Assembly (NCBI GenBank): GCA_964645795.1
Contig: CAZYCL010000006.1
Location: 73,939 to 137,938, forward strand
From: an uncultured Planctomycetales bacterium
GTDB lineage: Bacteria; Omnitrophota; Gorgyraeia; Gygaellales; Profunditerraquicolaceae
DNA length: 64,000 nucleotides
Direction of reading: 5' to 3'
Position 1 is the stretch's first letter. Each line of letters opens with the position of its first letter. Of this stretch, positions 3,557 to 62,757 are shown one piece after another. The position numbers and the translations under genes were made by a program. Under the pieces are notes generated by a model. It was not told where the DNA came from. It did not search any database and saw nothing but the letters and a program-made list of their open reading frames with translations.

Positions 3557-4352
3557 AGGCGATTTCGGCCATGTATTTATCGTTGCCGGTTCTTTGAAAT
3601 ATTCTGGAGCAGCCCAGTTATGCGCCGAAGCTGCTCTGCGCAGCGGCGCTGGCCTGGTGACGCTGGGGGTCCCGAAAGCCATAGCCGCAGCCATGATAAA
3701 GACCAAGCCTAAAGAGCTGATGCTCCTGCCGCTGGCCCAGACTAAAGATTGCGCGCTTTCCCTGTTTGCGTTTAAGGGTATCGCGGATTTCAGCAGGAGG
3801 GCCGATGTTTTATTGATCGGCCCGGGATTGGGAGCAGAAGCCTCTACTCGCTCATTGGCGCGTAAGGTCGTATCCGGGATAGCGCTGCCCATGGTCATCG
3901 ATGCCGATGCGCTCAATGCATTTGCCGGCCAGGCGGGAAAATTACCCGGGAATTCCGTGCTTACTCCTCATCCGGGAGAAATGGCCAGGCTCCTGGGTTT
4001 AAAGGCGCAGAAGATCCAGGCTGACAGGAAGAAGTACGCTAAGGCCCTAAGCAGGCAGAGCGGCTGCGTCGTCATATTAAAAGGCCACAGGAGCATCGTT
4101 GCCTATAGGGATAAATTATACGAGAACAAGACCGGTAACCCCGGCATGGCTACAGGAGGCAGCGGTGACGTGCTTAGCGGCATTATCGGTGCGTTCATCG
4201 GGCAGGGGTTAAGTTTGTTTGATGCGGCCAAGTACGCGGTTTATCTGCATGGCTTGGCCGGTGATTTGGCCGCCAAAGATAAGTCGGAAATTTCCTTGAT
4301 TGCATCGGATATTATTGATAAAATTCCACAGGCGATTAAGCGTTGTTCTTAG
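3510..4352 (+). CDS. nnrD: ADP-dependent NAD(P)H-hydrate dehydratase (YjeF C-terminal domain)
   Basis: HKGDFGHVFIVAGS and GGSGDVLSG are carbohydrate-kinase-like YjeF_C motifs. It overlaps the acpS end in another frame. Confidence 0.8.
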   Translation: MRLPTRLSQRKAASHKGDFGHVFIVAGSLKYSGAAQLCAEAALRSGAGLVTLGVPKAIAAAMIKTKPKELMLLPLAQTKDCALSLFAFKGIADFSRRADVLLIGPGLGAEASTRSLARKVVSGIALPMVIDADALNAFAGQAGKLPGNSVLTPHPGEMARLLGLKAQKIQADRKKYAKALSRQSGCVVILKGHRSIVAYRDKLYENKTGNPGMATGGSGDVLSGIIGAFIGQGLSLFDAAKYAVYLHGLAGDLAAKDKSEISLIASDIIDKIPQAIKRCS

Positions 4353-4361
4353 GCGGATTTT

Positions 4362-4434
4362 GCCGATGTAGCTCAGCTGGTAGAGCAATTGTTTTGTAAA
4401 CAATGGGTCGGGGGTTCGATTCCCTCCATCGGCT
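4362..4434 (+). tRNA. tRNA-Thr (anticodon TGT)
   Basis: A manual cloverleaf fold: acceptor GCCGATG/CATCGGC, D-arm GCTCAGCTGGTAGAGC, anticodon loop TTTGTAA, T-arm GGGGGTTCGATTCCCTC. No CCA is encoded. Confidence 0.8.
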
Positions 4435-4479
4435 TTAATCGGATATGGTATGAACACCCGACCCGAAAGGGGTGCGGCA

Positions 4480-4510
4480 GGCACCTTGCCTTATCGGATA
4501 GGCAAGTGCC
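4480..4510. repeat. GGCACCTTGCC-TTATCGGATA-GGCAAGTGCC hairpin (family H), copy 1
   Basis: Read directly from the sequence. Confidence 0.6.
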
Positions 4511-4518
4511 CCGTTTTC

Positions 4519-4546
4519 TGCGGGGGAAGAATTTCCCCGCGGTTTT
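4519..4546 (+). terminator. GC-rich hairpin (CGGGGGAAGAATTTCCCCGCG) followed by GTTTTGG, a likely intrinsic terminator after tRNA-Thr
   Basis: Seen directly: a stem-loop followed by a T-run. Confidence 0.4.
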
Positions 4547-4612
4547 GGAATGACAGCGACGAACGCATTTTGTGTTGATCAAGCTTTTGGATAGATAAAA
4601 TTTTAATTAATT

Positions 4613-4695
4613 GGGTAGGTACCCAAGTGGCCAAAGGGGGCAGACTGTAAATCTGCTGCACTAGTGCTTCAGAGGTTCGAATCCTCTCCTGCCCA
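4613..4695 (+). tRNA. tRNA-Tyr (anticodon GTA) with a long variable arm
   Basis: Acceptor GGGTAGG/CCTGCCC, anticodon stem-loop CAGACTGTAAATCTG, long variable arm, T-arm AGGTTCGAATCCT. Confidence 0.85.
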
Positions 4696-4756
4696 TTTAA
4701 ATTTTACGACAAGGTTTTGCGCGGGTGCGCAGTATATAGAGGCACCCAAACTTATC

Positions 4757-4787
4757 GGCACCTTGCCCAAAATGACGGGCAAGTGTC
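4757..4787. repeat. GGCACCTTGCC-CAAAATGAC-GGGCAAGTG hairpin (family H), copy 2, preceded by CTTATCGG
   Basis: Read directly from the sequence. Confidence 0.6.
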
Positions 4788-4869
4788 TACCTTCTGGTAG
4801 AACGGATTGGTGCCGCGCCTGGTAAATTAGGCACCCAAATAGATGGCGGTTTGCACGCTGTTGTATTTT

Positions 4870-4918
4870 GCGCACCTGGCGCTAATAGGTATTGCGCCAG
4901 TGCGCGCTAGGTAGCGCG
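4870..4918 (+). repeat. 46-nt tRNA-5'-associated element (family U), copy 1: GCGCACCTGGCGCTAATAGGTATTGCGCCAGTGCGCGCTAGGTAGCGCG
   Basis: It is ~96% identical to 7572-7620, which abuts tRNA-Pro. Here it sits inside a duplicated tRNA-Gly leader/5' end and is flanked by GCG on each side. Confidence 0.7.
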
Positions 4919-5022
4919 GGAGTAGTTTCCCGTTCAGCTATAAGATATCGGACGGGATCCCGCCGTCTGAATTTAAGATGGTGCGGCGGGACAGTGGTAG
5001 AACAATAGCCTTCTCCCGCCGC
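4915..5022 (+). pseudogene. Degenerate tRNA-Gly-derived fragments: the 5' acceptor GCGGGAGTAGTT, then a minihelix GCGGCGGGA-CAGTGGTAGAACAATAGCCTT-CTCCCGCCGC
   Basis: Identical 21-nt D-arm/anticodon-stem segments (CAGTGGTAGAACAATAGCCTT) occur here and in the intact tRNA-Gly at 5094. The fragment has no T-arm and cannot fold into a complete tRNA. Confidence 0.45.
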
Positions 5023-5093
5023 TGCAATTGAGATTCAGGCGGGACTTCGCCGCCAGTGATTGATAGATGGCGGCTCGCAAGCTTTTCTATTTT

Positions 5094-5167
5094 GCGGGAG
5101 TAGTTCAGTGGTAGAACAATAGCCTTCCAAGCTATATATGAGGGTTCGATTCCCTTCTCCCGCTCCA
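5094..5167 (+). tRNA. tRNA-Gly (anticodon TCC), CCA encoded
   Basis: Acceptor GCGGGAG/CTCCCGC, D-arm GTTCAGTGGTAGAAC, anticodon loop CTTCCAA, T-arm GAGGGTTCGATTCCCTT, 3' TCCA. Confidence 0.85.
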
Positions 5168-5335
5168 GATTTTTCGTAGCAGGCGGGAGACCGAATTTCC
5201 TTTTAAAGTTCCAGACGCAGGAGGCGGCTGGTCCTGTGCGCTTTATGCACAGGACGATTCCCTTCTCCCGCTCCAGATTTTTCGTAGCAGGCGGGAGACT
5301 GAATTTCCTTTTAAAGTTCCAGACGCAGGAGGCGG
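5148..5335 (+). repeat. 80-nt direct repeat (5148-5227 and 5256-5335, one mismatch) made of the last 20 nt of tRNA-Gly plus 60 nt downstream; the copies are separated by a 28-nt spacer with a 9-bp hairpin (GTCCTGTGC...GCACAGGAC)
   Basis: Read directly from the sequence. Confidence 0.8.
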
Positions 5336-5351
5336 AGAAAGAAAGATTATC

Positions 5352-6104
5352 ATGCCCGAACGCCAATTCCTAGAGCCGGTACATATCGATGCCTTTGACC
5401 TGGATGACGCCTGGTTCCAGTGCTTGTCGCGCATACTCGACCATGGTCACGTCTATACGATAACCCGCGGCAGCTATGAAGGGCAGAAGAGGCTGGAGTT
5501 CGATTTTGTTACCATAAGGGTCAAAAAGCCTTCGCATCAGATCATCCCGATAATCCCGGAGGGGATGAGCATACCCGCGCCTACGGACATGGACTATATC
5601 CAGGGATACCTTAGCTACCTGCTTACGGGTGCCAAGACCGAGACCGAGGACTATACTTACGGAGAGCGCCTGGTTGATCCCAAGGTGCGGCTCAGAGAGA
5701 AAGTCGACGGAAAGGAGATGGCCAGGGAAATACCTCTTCAGGTCAACCAGATCGAAGAGGTGATCAGGATGTATAAAGACAAGGGCCACGGCACCAACCA
5801 GGCGACGATGGAGATAGGCATGCCATCCGATATAACGCTGGTAGATCCGCCGTGCCTGCGCATAATCGATACGCGCATACGTTACGGCAAGCTCAATTTC
5901 ATATTATATTTCCGCTCCTGGGATCTATGGGGAGGTTTTCCTTCTAACCTCGGAGGGCTGCAGTTGGTAAAGCAGTATATGGCCGAAGAGATCGGCGTCG
6001 AAGACGGAGAGATAATCGCGGCAAGCAAGGGCCTGCATCTTTATGATTACGCCTGGGATCTTGCCAAGATGAGGACAAATAAGACAAGTTTGGAGATAGC
6101 TTGA
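5352..6104 (+). CDS. Thymidylate synthase family protein (compact, archaeal-type ThyA-like)
   Basis: It aligns by eye to the ThyA catalytic core: DPPC (catalytic Cys), YFRSWDLW (the RSxD motif), FPSN (the Asn that specifies dUMP), and HLYDY. It is 250 aa and divergent at the N-terminus. Confidence 0.6.
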   Translation: MPERQFLEPVHIDAFDLDDAWFQCLSRILDHGHVYTITRGSYEGQKRLEFDFVTIRVKKPSHQIIPIIPEGMSIPAPTDMDYIQGYLSYLLTGAKTETEDYTYGERLVDPKVRLREKVDGKEMAREIPLQVNQIEEVIRMYKDKGHGTNQATMEIGMPSDITLVDPPCLRIIDTRIRYGKLNFILYFRSWDLWGGFPSNLGGLQLVKQYMAEEIGVEDGEIIAASKGLHLYDYAWDLAKMRTNKTSLEIA

Positions 6105-7504: not shown

Positions 7505-7571
7505 AAGCAAATGGAATAAGTTTTCGCGCAATGACGGGGGCACCTTTGCCGAAAATACAGAGTGAATCTAT

Positions 7572-7620
7572 GCGCACCTGGCGCTGATAGGTATTGCGCC
7601 AGTGCGCGCTAGGTAGCGCG
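7572..7620 (+). repeat. Family U element, copy 2, ending at nt +2 of tRNA-Pro
   Basis: Read directly from the sequence. Confidence 0.7.
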
Positions 7621-7693
7621 GGGGATGGCTCAGCTTGGCTAGAGCGCTTGAATGGGGTTCAAGAGGTCGAGAGTTCAAATCTCTCTCCCCCGA
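7619..7693 (+). tRNA. tRNA-Pro (anticodon GGG), with a C1-G72 pair
   Basis: Acceptor CGGGGGA/TCCCCCG, D-arm GCTCAGCTTGGCTAGAGC, anticodon stem-loop CTTGAATGGGGTTCAAG, T-arm GAGAGTTCAAATCTCTC, discriminator A. Confidence 0.75.
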
Positions 7694-13360: not shown

Positions 13361-13447
13361 CCACCAGTCACCGCGCCACCATGTCACCAGCCAAACGGGT
13401 GACTTGGTGACAAGTTCAATCTCATTCGCCGGGTGACTCGGTGACTC
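13361..13447. repeat. GTCACC/GGTGAC hexamer-block palindromic element (family G), copy 1
   Basis: CCACCAGTCACCGCGCCACCATGTCACC...GGGTGACTTGGTGAC...GGGTGACTCGGTGACTC, intergenic. Confidence 0.7.
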
Positions 13448-19059: not shown

Positions 19060-21750
19060 ATGATCGAAATACCCAGTCGCTATAATCCCCACGAAACCGA
19101 GGATAAATGGTATAAGTTTTGGGAAGAGAACGGATTGTTTGCCGCAAAGAGCAATCCTTCCAAGAAGCCTTATTGCATCGTTATCCCCCCGCCCAACGTC
19201 ACCGGCATCCTGCATATGGGCCATGCCCTGAACAATACTATCCAGGATATACTTATCCGCTACCACCGCATGAAGGGCCGGGAGTCGCTCTGGATGCCCG
19301 GCACCGACCACGCCGGCATCGCCACTCAGAATGTGGTAGAGAAGAAGCTTGCCAGGGAGGGGATTAAGCGCCAGGACCTGGGCAGGGAAAAGTTCATCGA
19401 AAAGGTCTGGGAGTGGAGAGAGGAGTACGGCTCGACCATCATCCGCCAGCTCAAGAAGCTCGCAGCCTCCTGCGACTGGCCGCGGCTGCGCTTTACCATG
19501 GATGAGGATTATTCCAATGCGGTTATCGAGGTATTCAGCCGTCTTTATGAAAAAGGCCTTATCTATCGCGGCAGCTACATAATTAATTGGTGCCCGCGCT
19601 GTCAGACCGCGCTTTCTGACGAAGAGGCCCCGCATCAGGAAATGCAGGGCAGCCTTTATTACTTAAGATACCCCCTTAAAGATGTCACCAGGTCACCGGG
19701 TCACCAGGTCACCGGTCAGGAACATGTTGTTGTGGCGACAACTCGGCCTGAGACTATGCTCGGCGATACGGCGGTGGCGGTAAACCCTAAAGATAAAAGG
19801 TACAAAAAGCTCATCGGCAAAACTCTGATCTTGCCTTTGGTAAACAGAGAGATAAAAGTAATCGCTGATTCCGCGGTTGACATGAAGTTCGCAACCGGTG
19901 CGGTCAAGGTCACCCCCGCCCATGACCCCAATGATTATGCCATGGGTAAAAAGCATAACCTGGATTTCGTCAATGTCATGCAGCCGGATGGCCGCATGAA
20001 CGAGTCAGCAGGCGAGTATAAGGATATGGACCGGTTCCAGGCCCGCAAGCTCATCGTAGAACATTTAAAAGAGAAGGGGCTATTGGAGAAGATCGAGCCG
20101 CACGCGCTTTCCGCCGGCCACTGTTACCGCTGCCATACGATAATCGAGCCTTACCTTTCCAAACAGTGGTTTGTGAAGATGAAACCGCTGGCAAAAGAGG
20201 CTATTGATGTCGTCAAGACCGGCAGGATCAAGTTCCACCCTAAGCGCTGGACCAAGGTTTATCTTAACTGGATGGAGAATATCCAGGACTGGTGTATATC
20301 GCGCCAGATCTGGTGGGGCCATCGCATACCGGTCTACTACTGCAGGAACTGCGGCCAAGAGAAGTGTATCGTTTCCAAGGCCAGGCCCGAGAAGTGCCCT
20401 GATTGCAGCTCTGTTGATATTTATCAGGATGAGGATGTCCTGGATACCTGGTTTTCTTCATGGCTTTGGCCGTTTGCGACTTTTTACTGGCCGGATGACC
20501 CAAATAAGGAGGATCTGAAGTATTTTTATCCTACTTCAGTGTTAGTTACTGCTCCTGAAATCATATTCTTTTGGGTGGCGCGCATGATCATGTCGGGCTT
20601 AGAGTTCATGGGCGATATACCCTTTAAGGATGTTTATATCCACGGCACGGTGCGGGATGCCGAAGGCAAGAAGATGTCCAAGTCCCTGGGAAACAGCATC
20701 GACCCGCTTGAGATCATCAAAGAGTACGGCTGCGACGCCCTGAGGTTCAGCTTGATTTCTATTACAGCCCAGGGGCAGGATGTATTCCTGGCTAAGGAGA
20801 GGTTTGAGCAGGGCAGGAACTTTGCCAACAAGCTCTGGAATGCCTCGCGTTTCATACTCATGAACCTGGAAGATGAAGATTGCGGCAAGCGGGATTTGTG
20901 CGAGTTCTTTAAAAAGGAAGACCTGAGCCTGGTCAACCGTTGGATCTTGAGCAGGTTCTACTCGACCCTCAAAGACGTCAATAAGGAGCTCGATTCATAC
21001 CGTTTCAACGAGGCGGCCAATACCAGATATAGTTTTTTCTGGCATGAGTTTTGCGATTGGTACATAGAGATGGTTAAATCCGATATCAAGGATGCGCATA
21101 ATCAGACTGTGGCGTACAAGCTCCTGGAGAATTCGATAAGGATGCTGCATCCGTTTATGCCGTTCATCACCGAGGAGCTTTGGCAGAAAATTCAAGTCAC
21201 CAAGTCACCAAGTCACCAAGTCAGCAGTATTATGGCGGAGAGTTGGCCGCATGTTCAGGAGAATATGATCGATAAAAAGACCGAAACATTGATGAACTCT
21301 GTATTCGAGATCATCACCGCGATAAGAAATTTGCGCGCAGAGCTGGAGATCCCGCTACAGGATAAAGTGGAAATGGTCCTGTGCGTGCCGGGCAGGGAGA
21401 AGTCAAAGTTGATCGGCGGGCTCAGCCAACAGATAGCGGATCTCGCGGGGTTAAAAGGATTGTCTTTGAAGCCGGCGTACGCTGCGGCTAAAGGCCAGAT
21501 CAGTTCGGTGCTGCGTGATATGCATATCGTAATACCCGTATCCGGGATGAGCGAGCCCGCTAAATTCAGGCAGAAGATCATCGAAAGGACGGGGAGGCTG
21601 GCAGGTGAGATAGCGGTCAAGACGAAGATGCTGTCGAACCGCGATTTTGTTAAAAAAGCTCCCAAGGAGGTAGTGGAGAAAGAGAGGGCCAGGCTTTGCG
21701 AACTTAAGGATACCCTCAAAAAACTGGAGGCAGTCAAAGATGGAATCTAA
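19060..21750 (+). CDS. valS: Valine--tRNA ligase
   Basis: HMGH and KMSKS class I motifs and a C-terminal coiled coil. It contains two in-frame GTCACC-repeat insertions (19684-19720 and 21193-21224). Confidence 0.9.
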   Translation: MIEIPSRYNPHETEDKWYKFWEENGLFAAKSNPSKKPYCIVIPPPNVTGILHMGHALNNTIQDILIRYHRMKGRESLWMPGTDHAGIATQNVVEKKLAREGIKRQDLGREKFIEKVWEWREEYGSTIIRQLKKLAASCDWPRLRFTMDEDYSNAVIEVFSRLYEKGLIYRGSYIINWCPRCQTALSDEEAPHQEMQGSLYYLRYPLKDVTRSPGHQVTGQEHVVVATTRPETMLGDTAVAVNPKDKRYKKLIGKTLILPLVNREIKVIADSAVDMKFATGAVKVTPAHDPNDYAMGKKHNLDFVNVMQPDGRMNESAGEYKDMDRFQARKLIVEHLKEKGLLEKIEPHALSAGHCYRCHTIIEPYLSKQWFVKMKPLAKEAIDVVKTGRIKFHPKRWTKVYLNWMENIQDWCISRQIWWGHRIPVYYCRNCGQEKCIVSKARPEKCPDCSSVDIYQDEDVLDTWFSSWLWPFATFYWPDDPNKEDLKYFYPTSVLVTAPEIIFFWVARMIMSGLEFMGDIPFKDVYIHGTVRDAEGKKMSKSLGNSIDPLEIIKEYGCDALRFSLISITAQGQDVFLAKERFEQGRNFANKLWNASRFILMNLEDEDCGKRDLCEFFKKEDLSLVNRWILSRFYSTLKDVNKELDSYRFNEAANTRYSFFWHEFCDWYIEMVKSDIKDAHNQTVAYKLLENSIRMLHPFMPFITEELWQKIQVTKSPSHQVSSIMAESWPHVQENMIDKKTETLMNSVFEIITAIRNLRAELEIPLQDKVEMVLCVPGREKSKLIGGLSQQIADLAGLKGLSLKPAYAAAKGQISSVLRDMHIVIPVSGMSEPAKFRQKIIERTGRLAGEIAVKTKMLSNRDFVKKAPKEVVEKERARLCELKDTLKKLEAVKDGI
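19684..19720. repeat. Tandem octamer repeat GTCACCAG/GTCACCGG x4, in frame inside valS (encodes VTRSPGHQVTGQ)
   Basis: Read directly from the sequence. Confidence 0.8.
21193..21224. repeat. Tandem octamer repeat CAAGTCAC x3.5, in frame inside valS (encodes QVTKSPSHQVSS)
   Basis: Read directly from the sequence. Confidence 0.8.
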
Positions 21751-27514: not shown

Positions 27515-27556
27515 TTGGGGACGGTTCCGGGGACAGGTCCCAGAACCGTCCCCAAA
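27515..27556. repeat. 41-nt palindrome TTGGGGACGGTTCCGGGGAC-AGGTCCCAGAACCGTCCCCAA (family P), copy 1
   Basis: Read directly. It lies 20 nt upstream of the groES -35. Confidence 0.8.
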
Positions 27557-34930: not shown

Positions 34931-34994
34931 TGGTCACCACGTCACCAAGTCACCACGTCACCGGTTTAACGTGTGACCTGGTGGCTTGGTGACC
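34931..34994. repeat. GTCACC/GGTGAC palindromic element (family G), copy 2
   Basis: GGTCACCACGTCACCAAGTCACCACGTCACCGGTTTAACGTGTGACCTGGTGGCTTGGTGACCG. The left arm is identical to copy 3. Confidence 0.8.
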
Positions 34995-49306: not shown

Positions 49307-49347
49307 TTGGGGACGGTTCTGGGGACAGGTCCCAGAACCGTCCCCAA
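49307..49347. repeat. 41-nt palindrome TTGGGGACGGTTCTGGGGAC-AGGTCCCAGAACCGTCCCCAA (family P), copy 2
   Basis: Read directly, between recO and panE. Confidence 0.85.
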
Positions 49348-51155: not shown

Positions 51156-52865
51156 ATGGTAAACGCAGAAGTCGCCCGGATCTTCCGTTCCATAGCGCAG
51201 ATACTTCAAATTAAGGATGACAACCGCTTCCGCATCGCCGCCTACGAACGAGCCGCGCAGAACATCGAATCTCTCTCCGAGCCGCTGGAAACCATAAAAG
51301 ACGAGAACAGGCTGGGCGATATCCCGGGCATAGGCAAGGACCTCTCTTCCAAGATCTCCGAATTTATCGATTCCGGCAGCATCCGTTACTACGACGAGCT
51401 AAAACTTACCATACCTGCCGGATTGCTTGACCTGCTGGAGGTTTCCTCGATAGGCCCAAAGACCGCAAAGCTCCTTTTTGAAAAACTGGGCATCGGGGAT
51501 GTCCCGGGGCTTGAAAAGGCCATTAAATCAGGAAAGCTCAAAGGCCTGCCGGGGATAAAGCAAAAGTCCATAGAGAATATGCTTAAAGGCATAGAGCTTT
51601 ATTTCAGGCGCAGGCAGAGGATGACCCTGGCGCAGGCAGAGGAGGTTGCGGCGGAGTTTATTTCAAGGCTTTCCCGCTGCGGCGGCGTAAAACAGATCTG
51701 CGTTGCGGGAAGCTTGCGGCGCCGTACCGAGACCGTAGGCGATATAGATATACTTGTTGCTTCAGGCCATCCCGCTAAAGTCATCGATGCTTTTGTCAGG
51801 ATCGGCCAGGTAAAGGATATTCTGGCAAAAGGGAGCACAAAGGCTTCGGTGCGCACAAAAGACGGCGTGCAGCTGGACTGCCGCGTAGTCGGGAAATCGA
51901 TGTTTGGCGCGGCGCTCCTTTACTTTACCGGTTCCAAGCTTTTTAACATAAGGCTGCGCAAGCTCTCCCTAAGCCGGGGCTGCAAGCTCAACGAGTACGG
52001 TATCTTTAAGGGCAATAAGCTGCTTGCTTCTAAGACGGAAGAACAGATGTTGAAAGCCCTTAAGTTGCAGTATATCGAGCCGGAGTTAAGGGAGGATAAC
52101 GGCGAGATAGAGCTGGCTAAAAAAGGGCTGCTGCCCAAGCTTATTGAATCAAAGGACATAAAAGGCGACCTGCATGTTCATTCCGTCTGGTCCGACGGCT
52201 CCAACACCGTAGAAGAGCTGGCAGGCGGTGCGCGCAGGTTCGGTTACTCTTATATTGCCGTAACCGACCATTCTCAAAGCTTAAGGATCGCCAATGGGCT
52301 AAGCGTCCAGGACCTGGAAAATAAGCGCAAAGAGATTGAAGGGCTCAATAAGAGGCTAAAAGGGATCAGGGTGCTTTATGGTACCGAGGCGGACATCGAC
52401 CCCGAAGGGAATATTGATTACGATGACGGGGTCTTAAGGGATTTTGATATTGTCATCGCGGCCATCCACTCCGGTTTCAAGCAGGATAGGGGCAAGCTTA
52501 CCAGGCGCATCATTGAGGCCTGCAAAAATAAATACGTGCATATCATCGCCCATCCCACGGGCAGGCTCTGGGGGGTAAGGGATTCTTATGAGTTGGATTT
52601 CAGGGAAGTTTTAAAAGCCGCCAGCGACACTAATACCGCCCTTGAGATCAATTCTTTTCCCAGCCGCCTGGACCTCAATGACCTGCACAGCCGCCAGGCA
52701 AAGCAGGCGGGGGTAAGGCTGGCAATAAATACGGATTCCCACAGCGTTGACCAGTTACCCGGGATAAGGTTCGGCATATCAGTTGCCCGCCGCGGATGGG
52801 TCGAAGCATCGGGTGTCATCAATACTCTTTCCTGCGACCAACTGCTAAAAATAATCAAAAAGTAG
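51156..52865 (+). CDS. polX: DNA polymerase/3'-5' exonuclease PolX (family X polymerase plus PHP domain)
   Basis: HhH/pol-beta-like N-terminus (GIGKDLSSKI), nucleotidyltransferase GSLRRR...GDIDIL, and the C-terminal PHP motifs (HVHSVWSDG). Confidence 0.85.
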   Translation: MVNAEVARIFRSIAQILQIKDDNRFRIAAYERAAQNIESLSEPLETIKDENRLGDIPGIGKDLSSKISEFIDSGSIRYYDELKLTIPAGLLDLLEVSSIGPKTAKLLFEKLGIGDVPGLEKAIKSGKLKGLPGIKQKSIENMLKGIELYFRRRQRMTLAQAEEVAAEFISRLSRCGGVKQICVAGSLRRRTETVGDIDILVASGHPAKVIDAFVRIGQVKDILAKGSTKASVRTKDGVQLDCRVVGKSMFGAALLYFTGSKLFNIRLRKLSLSRGCKLNEYGIFKGNKLLASKTEEQMLKALKLQYIEPELREDNGEIELAKKGLLPKLIESKDIKGDLHVHSVWSDGSNTVEELAGGARRFGYSYIAVTDHSQSLRIANGLSVQDLENKRKEIEGLNKRLKGIRVLYGTEADIDPEGNIDYDDGVLRDFDIVIAAIHSGFKQDRGKLTRRIIEACKNKYVHIIAHPTGRLWGVRDSYELDFREVLKAASDTNTALEINSFPSRLDLNDLHSRQAKQAGVRLAINTDSHSVDQLPGIRFGISVARRGWVEASGVINTLSCDQLLKIIKK

Positions 52866-52917
52866 TGGGGACGGTTCTGGGGACGGTTCTGGGACCTGTC
52901 CCCAGAACCGTCCCCAA
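52866..52917. repeat. Family P palindrome, copy 3, with an internal duplication of GGGGACGGTTCT
   Basis: Read directly, between polX and apbE. Confidence 0.85.
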
Positions 52918-62685: not shown

Positions 62686-62757
62686 GTCACCACGTCACCA
62701 AGTCACCACGTCACCGGTTTTAACGGGTGAGGTGGTGACAGGTGATCCGGTGACCGG
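62686..62757. repeat. GTCACC/GGTGAC palindromic element (family G), copy 3
   Basis: GTCACCACGTCACCAAGTCACCACGTCACCGGTTTTAACGGGTGAGGTGGTGACAGGTGATCCGGTGACCGG. Confidence 0.8.

Follow-up and report, generated by a model that had tools for sequence, protein, structure and literature searches.

A tRNA-Gly locus of an uncultured Omnitrophota bacterium, probably scarred by a small palindromic element that prefers tRNA loops

The tRNA-Gly(UCC) gene situated just upstream of a thyA-like gene in the 64,000-nt stretch of contig CAZYCL010000006.1 analysed here (hereafter, the window) belongs to an Omnitrophota bacterium and is surrounded by fragments of tRNA sequence, duplicated leader segments, and a direct repeat that takes in the 3' end of the tRNA. 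An earlier note on this DNA had interpreted that arrangement as the footprint of the site-specific integration or excision of a genomic island. All the repeats listed there proved to be real, with coordinates off by at most 1-4 nt, and the view of the locus as rearranged holds to the extent that it consists of tRNA-derived debris shaped by mobile DNA; the island footprint, however, is not supported. We consider it probable that the locus was scarred by a palindromic element of 48-80 nt, here designated E, which is similar to the repetitive extragenic palindromic (REP) sequences and the miniature inverted-repeat transposable elements (MITEs) and which prefers the loops of tRNAs. According to this proposal, an older tRNA-Gly copy would have been disrupted by E, a small and non-autonomous element; one copy of E would split the old gene between its nucleotides 12 and 13, a second would end it at the junction 34|35, and E-derived sequence together with the hexamer CAAGCT would now serve as the leader of the live tRNA-Gly. 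An enzyme acting in trans would have moved E. The features of the locus are collected in Table 1.

The two pieces upstream of the intact gene are contiguous parts, nucleotides 1-12 and 13-34, of one dead tRNA-Gly, a continuity missed by the earlier note along with the origin of the minihelix arms in two palindromic elements and with the copy of the tRNA-Pro leader described below. The first piece, GCGGGAGTAGTT, is present as had been claimed, though at 4916-4927 rather than at 4915, and was not called as a tRNA by either ARAGORN or Rfam at an E-value of 1 or less. The E copy that follows interrupts the sequence TAGTT^CAGTGG, between nucleotides 12 and 13, and is composed of two hairpins—TCCCGT..ACGGGA and then TCCCGCCG..CGGCGGGA—with a calculated fold of -14.1 kcal/mol (z = -2.9); in the related locus L006 (5747-5809) a sequence of ca. 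75% identity occupies the same insertion site. The second E copy, a variant that we call E', lies at CCTTC^CAAGC, that is, at tRNA nucleotides 34|35, folds with -16.3 kcal/mol (z = -3.2), and aligns with the equivalent modules of L047, L067, L018, and L004, the 34|35 breakpoint being common to at least 11 other loci. The minihelix at 4983-5022, previously described as an acceptor stem joined to an internal segment of the tRNA, keeps its 9-bp stem (4983-4991 with 5014-5022) and the tRNA segment of nucleotides 13-34 enclosed by that stem; the supposed acceptor stem, however, is the right arm of the first E copy paired with the left arm of the second. The dead copy lacks tRNA nucleotides 41-53, and we infer that its pieces are non-functional relics. 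Hairpins of the form TCCCGC..GCGGGA number five in the 64 kb versus an expectation of 0.18, four of the five lying at this locus. A reading of these hairpins as a genome-wide REP family inside the window was dropped, their occurrence within the 64 kb being confined to this locus; the multi-copy nature of E was seen in other genomes and in metagenomes only, not in the window.

In those genomes and metagenomes, where E was found by motif searches and a covariance model (A1, R1), the element constitutes a homologous multi-copy family of the Omnitrophota and related uncultured bacteria. Its form is TCCCGNN-loop-NNCGGGA followed directly by a second TCCCGNN-loop-NNCGGGA—two head-to-tail hairpin modules—with a centre that reads GGCGGGATCCCGCC and partly conserved loops, of which loop 1 begins with CAAGC(T/G)AT. 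The arms covary (TCCCGCC/GGCGGGA versus TCCCGAC/GTCGGGA, among others): 92.6% of the cells are paired, five pairs change on both sides, and the covariation score was reached in 0 of 500 shuffles. An unbiased pattern scan of public metagenomes produced more than 120 E stretches, which on AT-rich contigs are mostly intergenic, several contigs of 6-15 kb carrying 2-3 copies each. Among the tRNA genes hit, tRNA-Pro has E in the anticodon stem of a dead copy that precedes the intact gene (L047 and L077) or in the T loop of a fragment that follows it (L002 and L009), and the TCCCGAC/GTCGGGA subfamily is common to the tRNA-Pro of L047 and the tRNA-Gly of L076 and L079. At least 10 further copies split other tRNAs, namely Gly(CCC), Met, Thr(GGU), Thr(CGU), Arg(UCG), His, Cys, Asn, and Gly(UCC), the D, anticodon, and T loops of at least ten tRNA species being among the sites of E, and beside each of those split copies there is an intact copy of the same tRNA at a distance of a few to ca. 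180 nt. One copy is located in a protein gene, thrC of L002 (11301-11348), where 48 nt in frame add 16 amino acids to a loop of threonine synthase. That loop differs in length by 5-23 residues among species, the inserts of L047 and L063 being longer still.

Wherever both flanks of E could be compared with the intact gene (at least six tRNA targets), they were contiguous in the latter, with neither loss nor duplication, and the flank logo of 67 copies reads TTT|E|(A/C)AA. The element sits precisely at TT^(C/A)AA, a motif typical of the T, D, and anticodon loops of tRNAs. Since the insertion is precise and without duplication, the enzyme that would have moved E might well be a single-strand hairpin-specific transposase of the HUH/Y1 type or a site-specific recombinase. 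Among 138 ORFs neighbouring E, compared all-against-all by BLAST, no protein family recurs, which argues that E is non-autonomous; in 1.5 Mb of loci we found no full-length element with the ends of E, and in 2.9 million viral contigs the E pattern gave only four stretches. The idea that E is always placed in the loop of a host hairpin was rejected, in-register flank complementarity being 5.45 of 12 versus 5.24 of 12 with shuffled partners. The searchable literature contained no description of the E core, of tRNA introns in Omnitrophota, or of palindromic elements in tRNA genes, and the family appears to be undescribed so far. A second abundant palindromic family with the GGCGGGATCCCGCC core, of the form GTCCCGCCAC-AT-rich-GTGGGCGGGATCCCGCC..GGCGGTGATAAT and sometimes in adjacent copies, was observed in seventeen of the metagenome loci.

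To compare the locus with its relatives, we used the thyA-like protein as a query and obtained 80 loci (82-88% amino-acid identity) in records named Omnitrophota or, in nine instances, 'uncultured Planctomycetales', and in these loci we mapped the tRNA-Gly-like fragments; all the comparisons rest on metagenome-assembled genomes, and the array of L024 holds an N gap. Comparable tRNA-Gly pieces, without any island, are present in 19 of 70 loci (69 related species plus the window), and the tRNA-Gly locus is clean in about 50 of the 69 species. The comparison with related genomes that the earlier note had recommended thus yielded the same kind of arrangement and no islands. Upstream of the intact gene, 5' halves ending exactly at nucleotide 34 (CCTTC) occur in nine loci (L001, L004, L017, L018, L024, L031, L047, L055, and L067), TCCCGCC following directly in all of them except L017; downstream, 3' halves that start at nucleotide 35 (CAAGC) and are preceded by GGCGGGA occur in L031, L076, and L079, and decayed 3' halves in L055, L056, and L077. 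Two intact tRNA-Gly genes in tandem were found in none of the species compared, and at none of the related loci was a gene interrupted by E the sole copy: E insertions would survive in redundant tRNA copies alone, since the intact gene next to them provides the function. In five loci (L055, L151, L031, L077, and L056) the intact tRNA-Gly stands inside the first loop of E, between the halves of older copies, with a constant geometry of TCCCGCC, 14-17 nt, the tRNA, 11-20 nt, and GGCGGGA; in L151 the acceptor strands GCGGGCG/CGCCCGC indicate that both halves came from one gene. In the window, the right-hand part of this geometry is the same.

The leader sequences attest to the history of the dead copy. 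A whole-window repeat search aligned 4869-4920 with the tRNA-Pro leader at 7571-7622 (52 nt, 98% identical), while the natural tRNA-Gly leader of L045 matches 4878-4927 at 96% over 50 nt; the segment 4869-4915 folds with -16.5 kcal/mol (z = -4.4). The retention of a leader hairpin like those of tRNA-Pro and of the tRNA-Gly of L045 shows that the dead copy was once a complete gene. The duplication of the leader reported in the earlier note was likewise found, as 34 nt at 4839-4872 and 5063-5096, the former, which can be aligned to the leader module, being made up of the right end of an E'-type element, then CACGCT, and then an AT-rich stretch. The live gene has its own leader at 5014-5093, and this aligns with the segment between the half-tRNA and the intact tRNA in L047, L067, L018, and L004, all of which share the form of an E variant, then GCTC(A/G)(A)CAAGCT—including tRNA nucleotides 35-40—and then an AT-rich stretch; the module is homologous in five species. 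The aligned segment of L047 contains TTGACA-17/18-TAATAT, a good sigma-70-like promoter, and in the window TTGATA (5060-5065), 17 nt, and TTTTCT, spanning the second E copy and 5078-5093, might possibly be the promoter of the live gene, which may use the relic pieces as its promoter and leader. A scan of the locus for consensus promoters and terminators gave nothing above the shuffled expectation and did not call TTGATA-17-TTTTCT. In five other loci (L021, L042, L051, L053, and L059) a micro-hairpin, GCGGGATACTCCCGC, in which two tRNA-Gly acceptor strands are joined by 3 nt, lies ca. 20-30 nt upstream of the intact tRNA-Gly; it may be an extremely reduced relic of a dead tRNA-Gly copy.

Downstream of the live gene, the direct repeat comprises 81 nt—5147-5227 versus 5255-5335, one more nucleotide than had been noted—with one mismatch, and consists of the last 21 nt of the tRNA plus 60 nt. 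Its second copy begins at CGATT, directly after the T-loop GGTT, and the equivalent T-loop position holds E in fragments of tRNA-Pro, Met, Thr, and Asn elsewhere. The hairpin between the copies, correctly reported before, is formed by GTCCTGTGC/GCACAGGAC at 5231-5255 (9-10 bp; -10.5 kcal/mol, z = -6.2). Within the trailer, GCGGGAGA (5183-5190) pairs with TCTCCCGC (5156-5163) of the tRNA 3' acceptor strand, the hairpin 5157-5190 folding with -6.5 kcal/mol (z = -2.5) and the segment 5147-5254 with -24.9 kcal/mol (z = -5.7); GGCGGGAG lies 15 nt past the tRNA end, and the distance from the tRNA end to GGCGGGA is that of L055, L077, and L031, where the intact tRNA lies inside E. The 60-nt unit is no common tRNA-trailer repeat, an eventuality that the earlier note had raised: only the two copies occur in the window, against 0 matches in shuffles, and neither the unit nor the 27-nt hairpin has another copy in the 1.5 Mb of related loci, mismatches allowed. 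The 27-nt insert is not something that plain tandem duplication could produce, and after an integrase event an island would be left. In our view the repeat arose recently and locally, by duplication or gene conversion of the 3' end of the tRNA with its trailer, at an E-type T-loop junction. It is possible that the upstream 5' part and the downstream 3' fragment are the ends of one old gene, with the live gene nested between them as in L055 and L151. In L061, L080, and L013 the intact tRNA-Gly is followed, after a conserved structured spacer of 105-130 nt (..GGGGTGCGGGGGAAAAGAGATTTCCCCCGCG..AGGAGGGGGCTTGCC..), by a duplicated fragment that runs from the T arm to the 3' end; a hairpin resembling that spacer, GCGGGGGAAGAATTTCCCCGC, is present in the window between tRNA-Thr and tRNA-Tyr (4435-4560).

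Both repeats can be taken as genuine. Logan unitigs start at position 5306 and end at position 7616 of the window, exactly k-1 inside the 81-nt repeat and the Pro-leader repeat, respectively, and the same branch points recur in independent Logan assemblies of the same species from at least three runs; the position of the breaks at k-1 inside both repeats therefore indicates that the repeats are real in at least three independent samples and no artefact of assembly. The Logan contigs end at the repeats, so alternative alleles are not visible in them. Seven Logan contigs of the same species, obtained in other sequencing runs, carry the neighbouring PilZ protein at 100% identity, and its next relatives are 62-69% identical, a gap that leaves no near relative for a comparison of occupied and empty sites.

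Several observations weigh against scarring by E. No transposase or recombinase could be linked to E among the ORFs beside it that were compared, and the loops differ strongly among the E copies of one contig, so that no recent transposition was caught. The element is nearly palindromic and R1 matches both strands, for which reason its orientation is not callable; R1 was built from sense-strand copies, and an orientation bias relative to the tRNA is not assessable from that model. Repeats in metagenome-assembled genomes can, moreover, be misassembled. In the window itself the trailer unit resembles E weakly (only 16.8 bits against R1, E-value = 0.21), neither the 27-nt hairpin nor the 60-nt trailer is a convincing E copy, and E leaves the 81-nt repeat unexplained. 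The most frequent type of tRNA-Gly has acceptor strands equal to the arms of E, and the start of loop 1 resembles tRNA-Gly nucleotides 35-42; to judge from these sequences, some of the hairpins at the locus could derive from local rearrangement of tRNA-Gly and not from insertion. In most cases only 5-15 nt of the tRNA are kept on the side of E that faces the intact gene. Lastly, the rule of an intact gene beside a split one, together with the lack of intact tandem pairs, is not predicted by a simple insertion into a spare copy.

A bolder proposal, to which we attach a rather low probability, is that E would be a self-compensating parasite of essential tRNA genes that targets loops by means of a single-strand hairpin-specific recombinase and whose insertion is coupled to the provision of a replacement gene. 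The nested intact tRNA-Gly of the five loci, the like right-hand geometry in the window, and the absence of intact tandem copies that could have served as a spare target all fit such a coupling of insertion and replacement, which if true would constitute a new selfish strategy against essential genes. E itself may descend from tRNA-Gly, and would then represent a bacterial tRNA-derived repeat family.

Two further explanations seem to us less probable still, and about equally so. The first is local rearrangement alone: ancestral tandem tRNA-Gly genes would have undergone slippage or unequal crossing-over, E being the junction of a tRNA 3' end, a spacer, and a 5' end. Such a history would explain the likeness of the arms to the acceptor strands of tRNA-Gly, and candidate short repeats are at hand in CCTTC (anticodon loop and T stem) and in the GCGGGA/TCCCGC acceptor strands, the CCTTC|TCCCGC junction being obtainable by a deletion between two CCTTC pentamers of a tRNA of the window type; half-tRNA units form tandem arrays in L018 and L024, and the 108-nt periodicity downstream resembles a tandem duplication. 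Elements with the conserved loops and covarying arms of E are nevertheless found inside tRNA-Pro, Met, Thr, Arg, His, Cys, and Asn, in thrC, and at many intergenic sites without tRNA-Gly sequence; one and the same TCCCGAC subfamily spans tRNA-Pro (L047) and tRNA-Gly (L076 and L079); the half-tRNAs are often of types unlike the resident gene; the ancestral tandem state was not seen in any species; and the 27-nt hairpin is beyond the reach of plain tandem duplication.

The second is the one that the earlier note had favoured, namely that a prophage or island with a tyrosine integrase integrated in tRNA-Gly and was later lost, the 81-nt repeat representing attL and attR and the upstream pieces the debris of earlier events. 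Mobile elements that integrate are known as the chief origin of tRNA gene fragments (PMC9897764; Williams 2002, cited there), the repeat extends from the T loop through the 3' end, a classic att sublocation, and the duplicates from the T arm to the 3' end in L061, L080, and L013 lie 105-130 nt downstream of tRNA-Gly. The repeats of the window, however, enclose 27 nt and no element of kilobase size, and with but one mismatch they go on for 60 nt past the tRNA, a sign of duplication that was both local and recent. Nor would integration yield upstream 5' fragments or tRNA pieces parted by 64-nt palindromes, the upstream pieces being 5' parts of the tRNA rather than 3' fragments of the att type. 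The absence of an integrase, already remarked upon, was borne out in that the ORFs of at least 120 amino acids in the window contain no tyrosine- or serine-recombinase signature apart from one weak match without a Pfam domain, though this motif scan is a weak test and only 4.3 kb are visible upstream. The flanking genes are housekeeping genes syntenic across the 80 species, which speaks against an integrase scar; the thyA-like gene directly follows tRNA-Gly in most of the 69 related species, a subclade having a kinase/regulator pair there instead, and with the same gene or genes directly after tRNA-Gly in the relatives no island site is visible. E-type patterns are, in addition, nearly absent from the viral contigs.

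That the pieces constitute a functional RNA design—for the processing, termination, or regulation of the tRNA-Gly/thyA transcript—or that E is an intron-like insert removed from the RNA, or part of a split tRNA, is hardly credible, for although the pieces, which lie on the sense strand, have stable folds (z = -3 to -6), pairing links the trailer to the 3' strand of the tRNA, relics last across species (L055 and L077 have the same decayed 3' half; L142 and L154 have E at the same site with diverged loops), and the leader module is kept in five species, with the good sigma-70-like promoter of L047, truncation, broken stems, or mismatched acceptor strands mark the tRNA copies with E wherever both halves can be checked, an intact copy lies beside each, the E-interrupted gene is never the only copy of a locus, no Rfam match was obtained, ca. 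70% of the related species do without such pieces, and the 60-nt unit is unique to this genome.

Among the known systems, the REP, BIME, and REPIN sequences of proteobacteria are mobilised by RAYT, a Y1 HUH transposase, and bear a 5' GTAG signature. E is like them in being a short, imperfect palindrome with conserved stems and variable loops, in forming doublets, and in being multi-copy, mostly extragenic, non-autonomous, and long-persisting; it is unlike them in lacking the 5' GTAG, in having TCCCGNN/NNCGGGA arms flanked by TTT and (A/C)AA, in its preference for TT^(C/A)AA and tRNA loops, and in its head-to-tail doublets with abutting arms, and no RAYT gene was found near E. The Rickettsia palindromic elements (RPEs) are also small, palindromic, selfish repeats that lie in frame in protein genes and in RNA genes, but they measure ca. 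100-150 bp, are unrelated in sequence, and are not known to split tRNA genes beside intact copies, while E has the thrC of L002 as its single in-frame case. With the palindrome-associated transposable elements (PATEs) derived from IS200/IS605, E shares end hairpins, a short specific target, the absence of a target-site duplication, and dependence on a transposase in trans; in PATEs, by contrast, the hairpins are subterminal and the target tetranucleotide stands at the left end only, whereas the hairpins of E reach the very ends, and no TnpA was found with E. Compared with a MITE derived from an insertion sequence, the inverted arms are present and the target-site duplication is absent.

The locus as a whole resembles an integrase att site in that a partial tRNA 3' end, from the T loop onward, is duplicated beside the intact gene, and differs from one in having neither island nor integrase, in the 27 nt between the repeats, and in its upstream 5' fragments and palindrome-interrupted pieces. 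As in the split tRNAs and mobile tRNA introns of archaea (Nanoarchaeum, Thermoproteales), the breaks fall in the anticodon loop or in the D or T arm, complementary GC-rich sequences lie beside the halves, and related inserts occupy many tRNA positions; yet in archaea the genes are functional, a splicing endonuclease joining the parts at a bulge-helix-bulge motif, whereas the copies split by E are truncated bacterial pseudogenes, each beside an intact gene. In tyrT of Escherichia coli a 178-bp trailer unit with a small ORF is repeated ca. three times, each unit containing the last ca. 19 nt of tRNA-Tyr. The present locus is like that one in that a tRNA 3' end and its trailer are repeated in tandem directly downstream, presumably through unequal recombination, and unlike it in possessing a palindromic element.

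When a partial tRNA gene is met in a bacterium, it is routinely taken for an att scar left by an integrase. Scarring by E, as proposed for this locus and some twenty others alike, would amount to a second route, in which a tiny palindromic family inserts precisely in tRNA loops and leaves half-tRNAs beside an intact copy or, at times, a tRNA nested in a split tRNA; such a route would bear on tRNA annotation and on island prediction in uncultured phyla, would provide a bacterial counterpart to the archaeal split tRNAs and mobile tRNA introns, and points to an enzyme whose recognition site would be TT^CAA within hairpin loops. Taken by itself, this window has modest implications: its tRNA fragments are relics, and its tRNA-Gly gene is intact.

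Table 1. Features of the tRNA-Gly locus and of the tRNA-Pro leader (positions in the window; R1, covariance model of E).
Feature	Position	Strand	Evidence or remark
Relic of an older tRNA-Gly leader module	4839-4872	+	85% identity with 5063-5096 over 34 nt
Leader hairpin module of the dead tRNA-Gly copy, 47 nt	4869-4915	+	Common to tRNA-Pro
Pseudo-tRNA-Gly, nt 1-12, GCGGGAGTAGTT	4916-4927	+	100% identical to 5094-5105
E copy 1	4928-4991 (64 nt)	+	R1 66.3 bits, E-value = 4e-13
Pseudo-tRNA-Gly, nt 13-34, ending in CCTTC in the anticodon loop	4992-5013	+	100% identical to 5106-5127
E copy 2 (E' variant, second hairpin degenerate)	5014-5077	+	R1 48.1 bits, E-value = 8e-9
CAAGCT (nt 35-40 of the dead tRNA copy) and AT-rich leader of the live gene	5078-5093	+	Alignment
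Intact tRNA-Gly(UCC) with encoded CCA	5094-5167	+	ARAGORN; Rfam RF00005, 75.8 bits
60-nt trailer unit, copy 1	5168-5227	+	Repeat search
27-nt spacer between the repeats	5228-5254	+	Ends in ..CAGGA against the T-loop breakpoint
Pseudo 3' fragment of tRNA-Gly, nt 54-74 (CGATT..CCA)	5255-5275	+	Part of the 81-nt repeat
60-nt trailer unit, copy 2, 1 mismatch; then thyA-like start at 5352	5276-5335	+	
thyA-like gene	5352-6104		PF00303, E-value = 5e-10; TIGR03283, 104 bits, below the cutoff of 174
tRNA-Pro leader hairpin, paralogue of 4869-4920	7571-7622	+	98% identity

The gene order of the host is tRNA-Thr, tRNA-Tyr, tRNA-Gly(UCC), thyA-like ... tRNA-Pro. ARAGORN placed four tRNA genes in the window—Thr at 4362-4434, Tyr at 4612-4696, Gly(TCC) at 5094-5167, and Pro at 7619-7693—and a scan of the window with Rfam confirmed these four without any further match, so that the two programs agree on the intact tRNA-Gly that the earlier note had recognised; its sequence is identical to that of L023. 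Over 4300-5400, Rfam at an E-value of 1 or less gave only chance matches beyond the three tRNAs, and RF00028, the group I intron core, had no match in the window. The thyA-like gene was found where the note had placed it, directly after the locus; its protein is nearest to the methanogen-type thymidylate synthase (TIGR03283), and no exact record of it was found. The order Thr-Tyr-Gly(UCC)-thyA ... Pro(GGG) is kept across the related loci, with spacers of ca. 10 nt to several hundred, and the thyA-like gene usually lies just 3' of the tRNA cluster, ca. 2 kb intervening in some clades.

In eleven of the related loci the tRNA-Tyr was missed by ARAGORN, and in all eleven that place is taken by a group I intron (RF00028, 82-113 bits), which evidently lies within tRNA-Tyr(GUA); the tRNA-Tyr of the window is without an intron. 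In L048 a tRNA-Pro(GGG) occupies the tRNA-Gly slot and a tRNA-Gly the tRNA-Pro slot, and in L064 a tRNA-Pro lies between Thr and Tyr; these swaps of slot, together with the common leader hairpin, suggest an exchange between the two tRNA sites 2.5 kb apart. After tRNA-Thr, the 25 nt at 4453-4477 of the window are 100% identical in L001 and nearly so in L065 and L033, and a hairpin GGCACCTTGCC..GGCAAGTG follows both tRNA-Thr (4480-4508) and tRNA-Tyr (4757-4785); the 25-nt stretch and this hairpin may be conserved spacer or terminator elements.

Two other kinds of repeat were observed in the window. The octamer GTCACCNN forms short tandem arrays at 13367-13401, 19668-19718, 21188-21238, 34933-34983, and 62686-62728, two of the five being 100% identical over 35 nt, and 7-9-mer arrays resembling these often flank E copies on the metagenome contigs. 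A 41-nt palindrome with a perfect stem, TTGGGGACGGTTCYGGGGACAGGTCCCAGAACCGTCCCCAA, occurs in four copies (27515-27555, 49307-49347, and 52865-52917) and represents a second REP-like repeat of this genome, unrelated to E.

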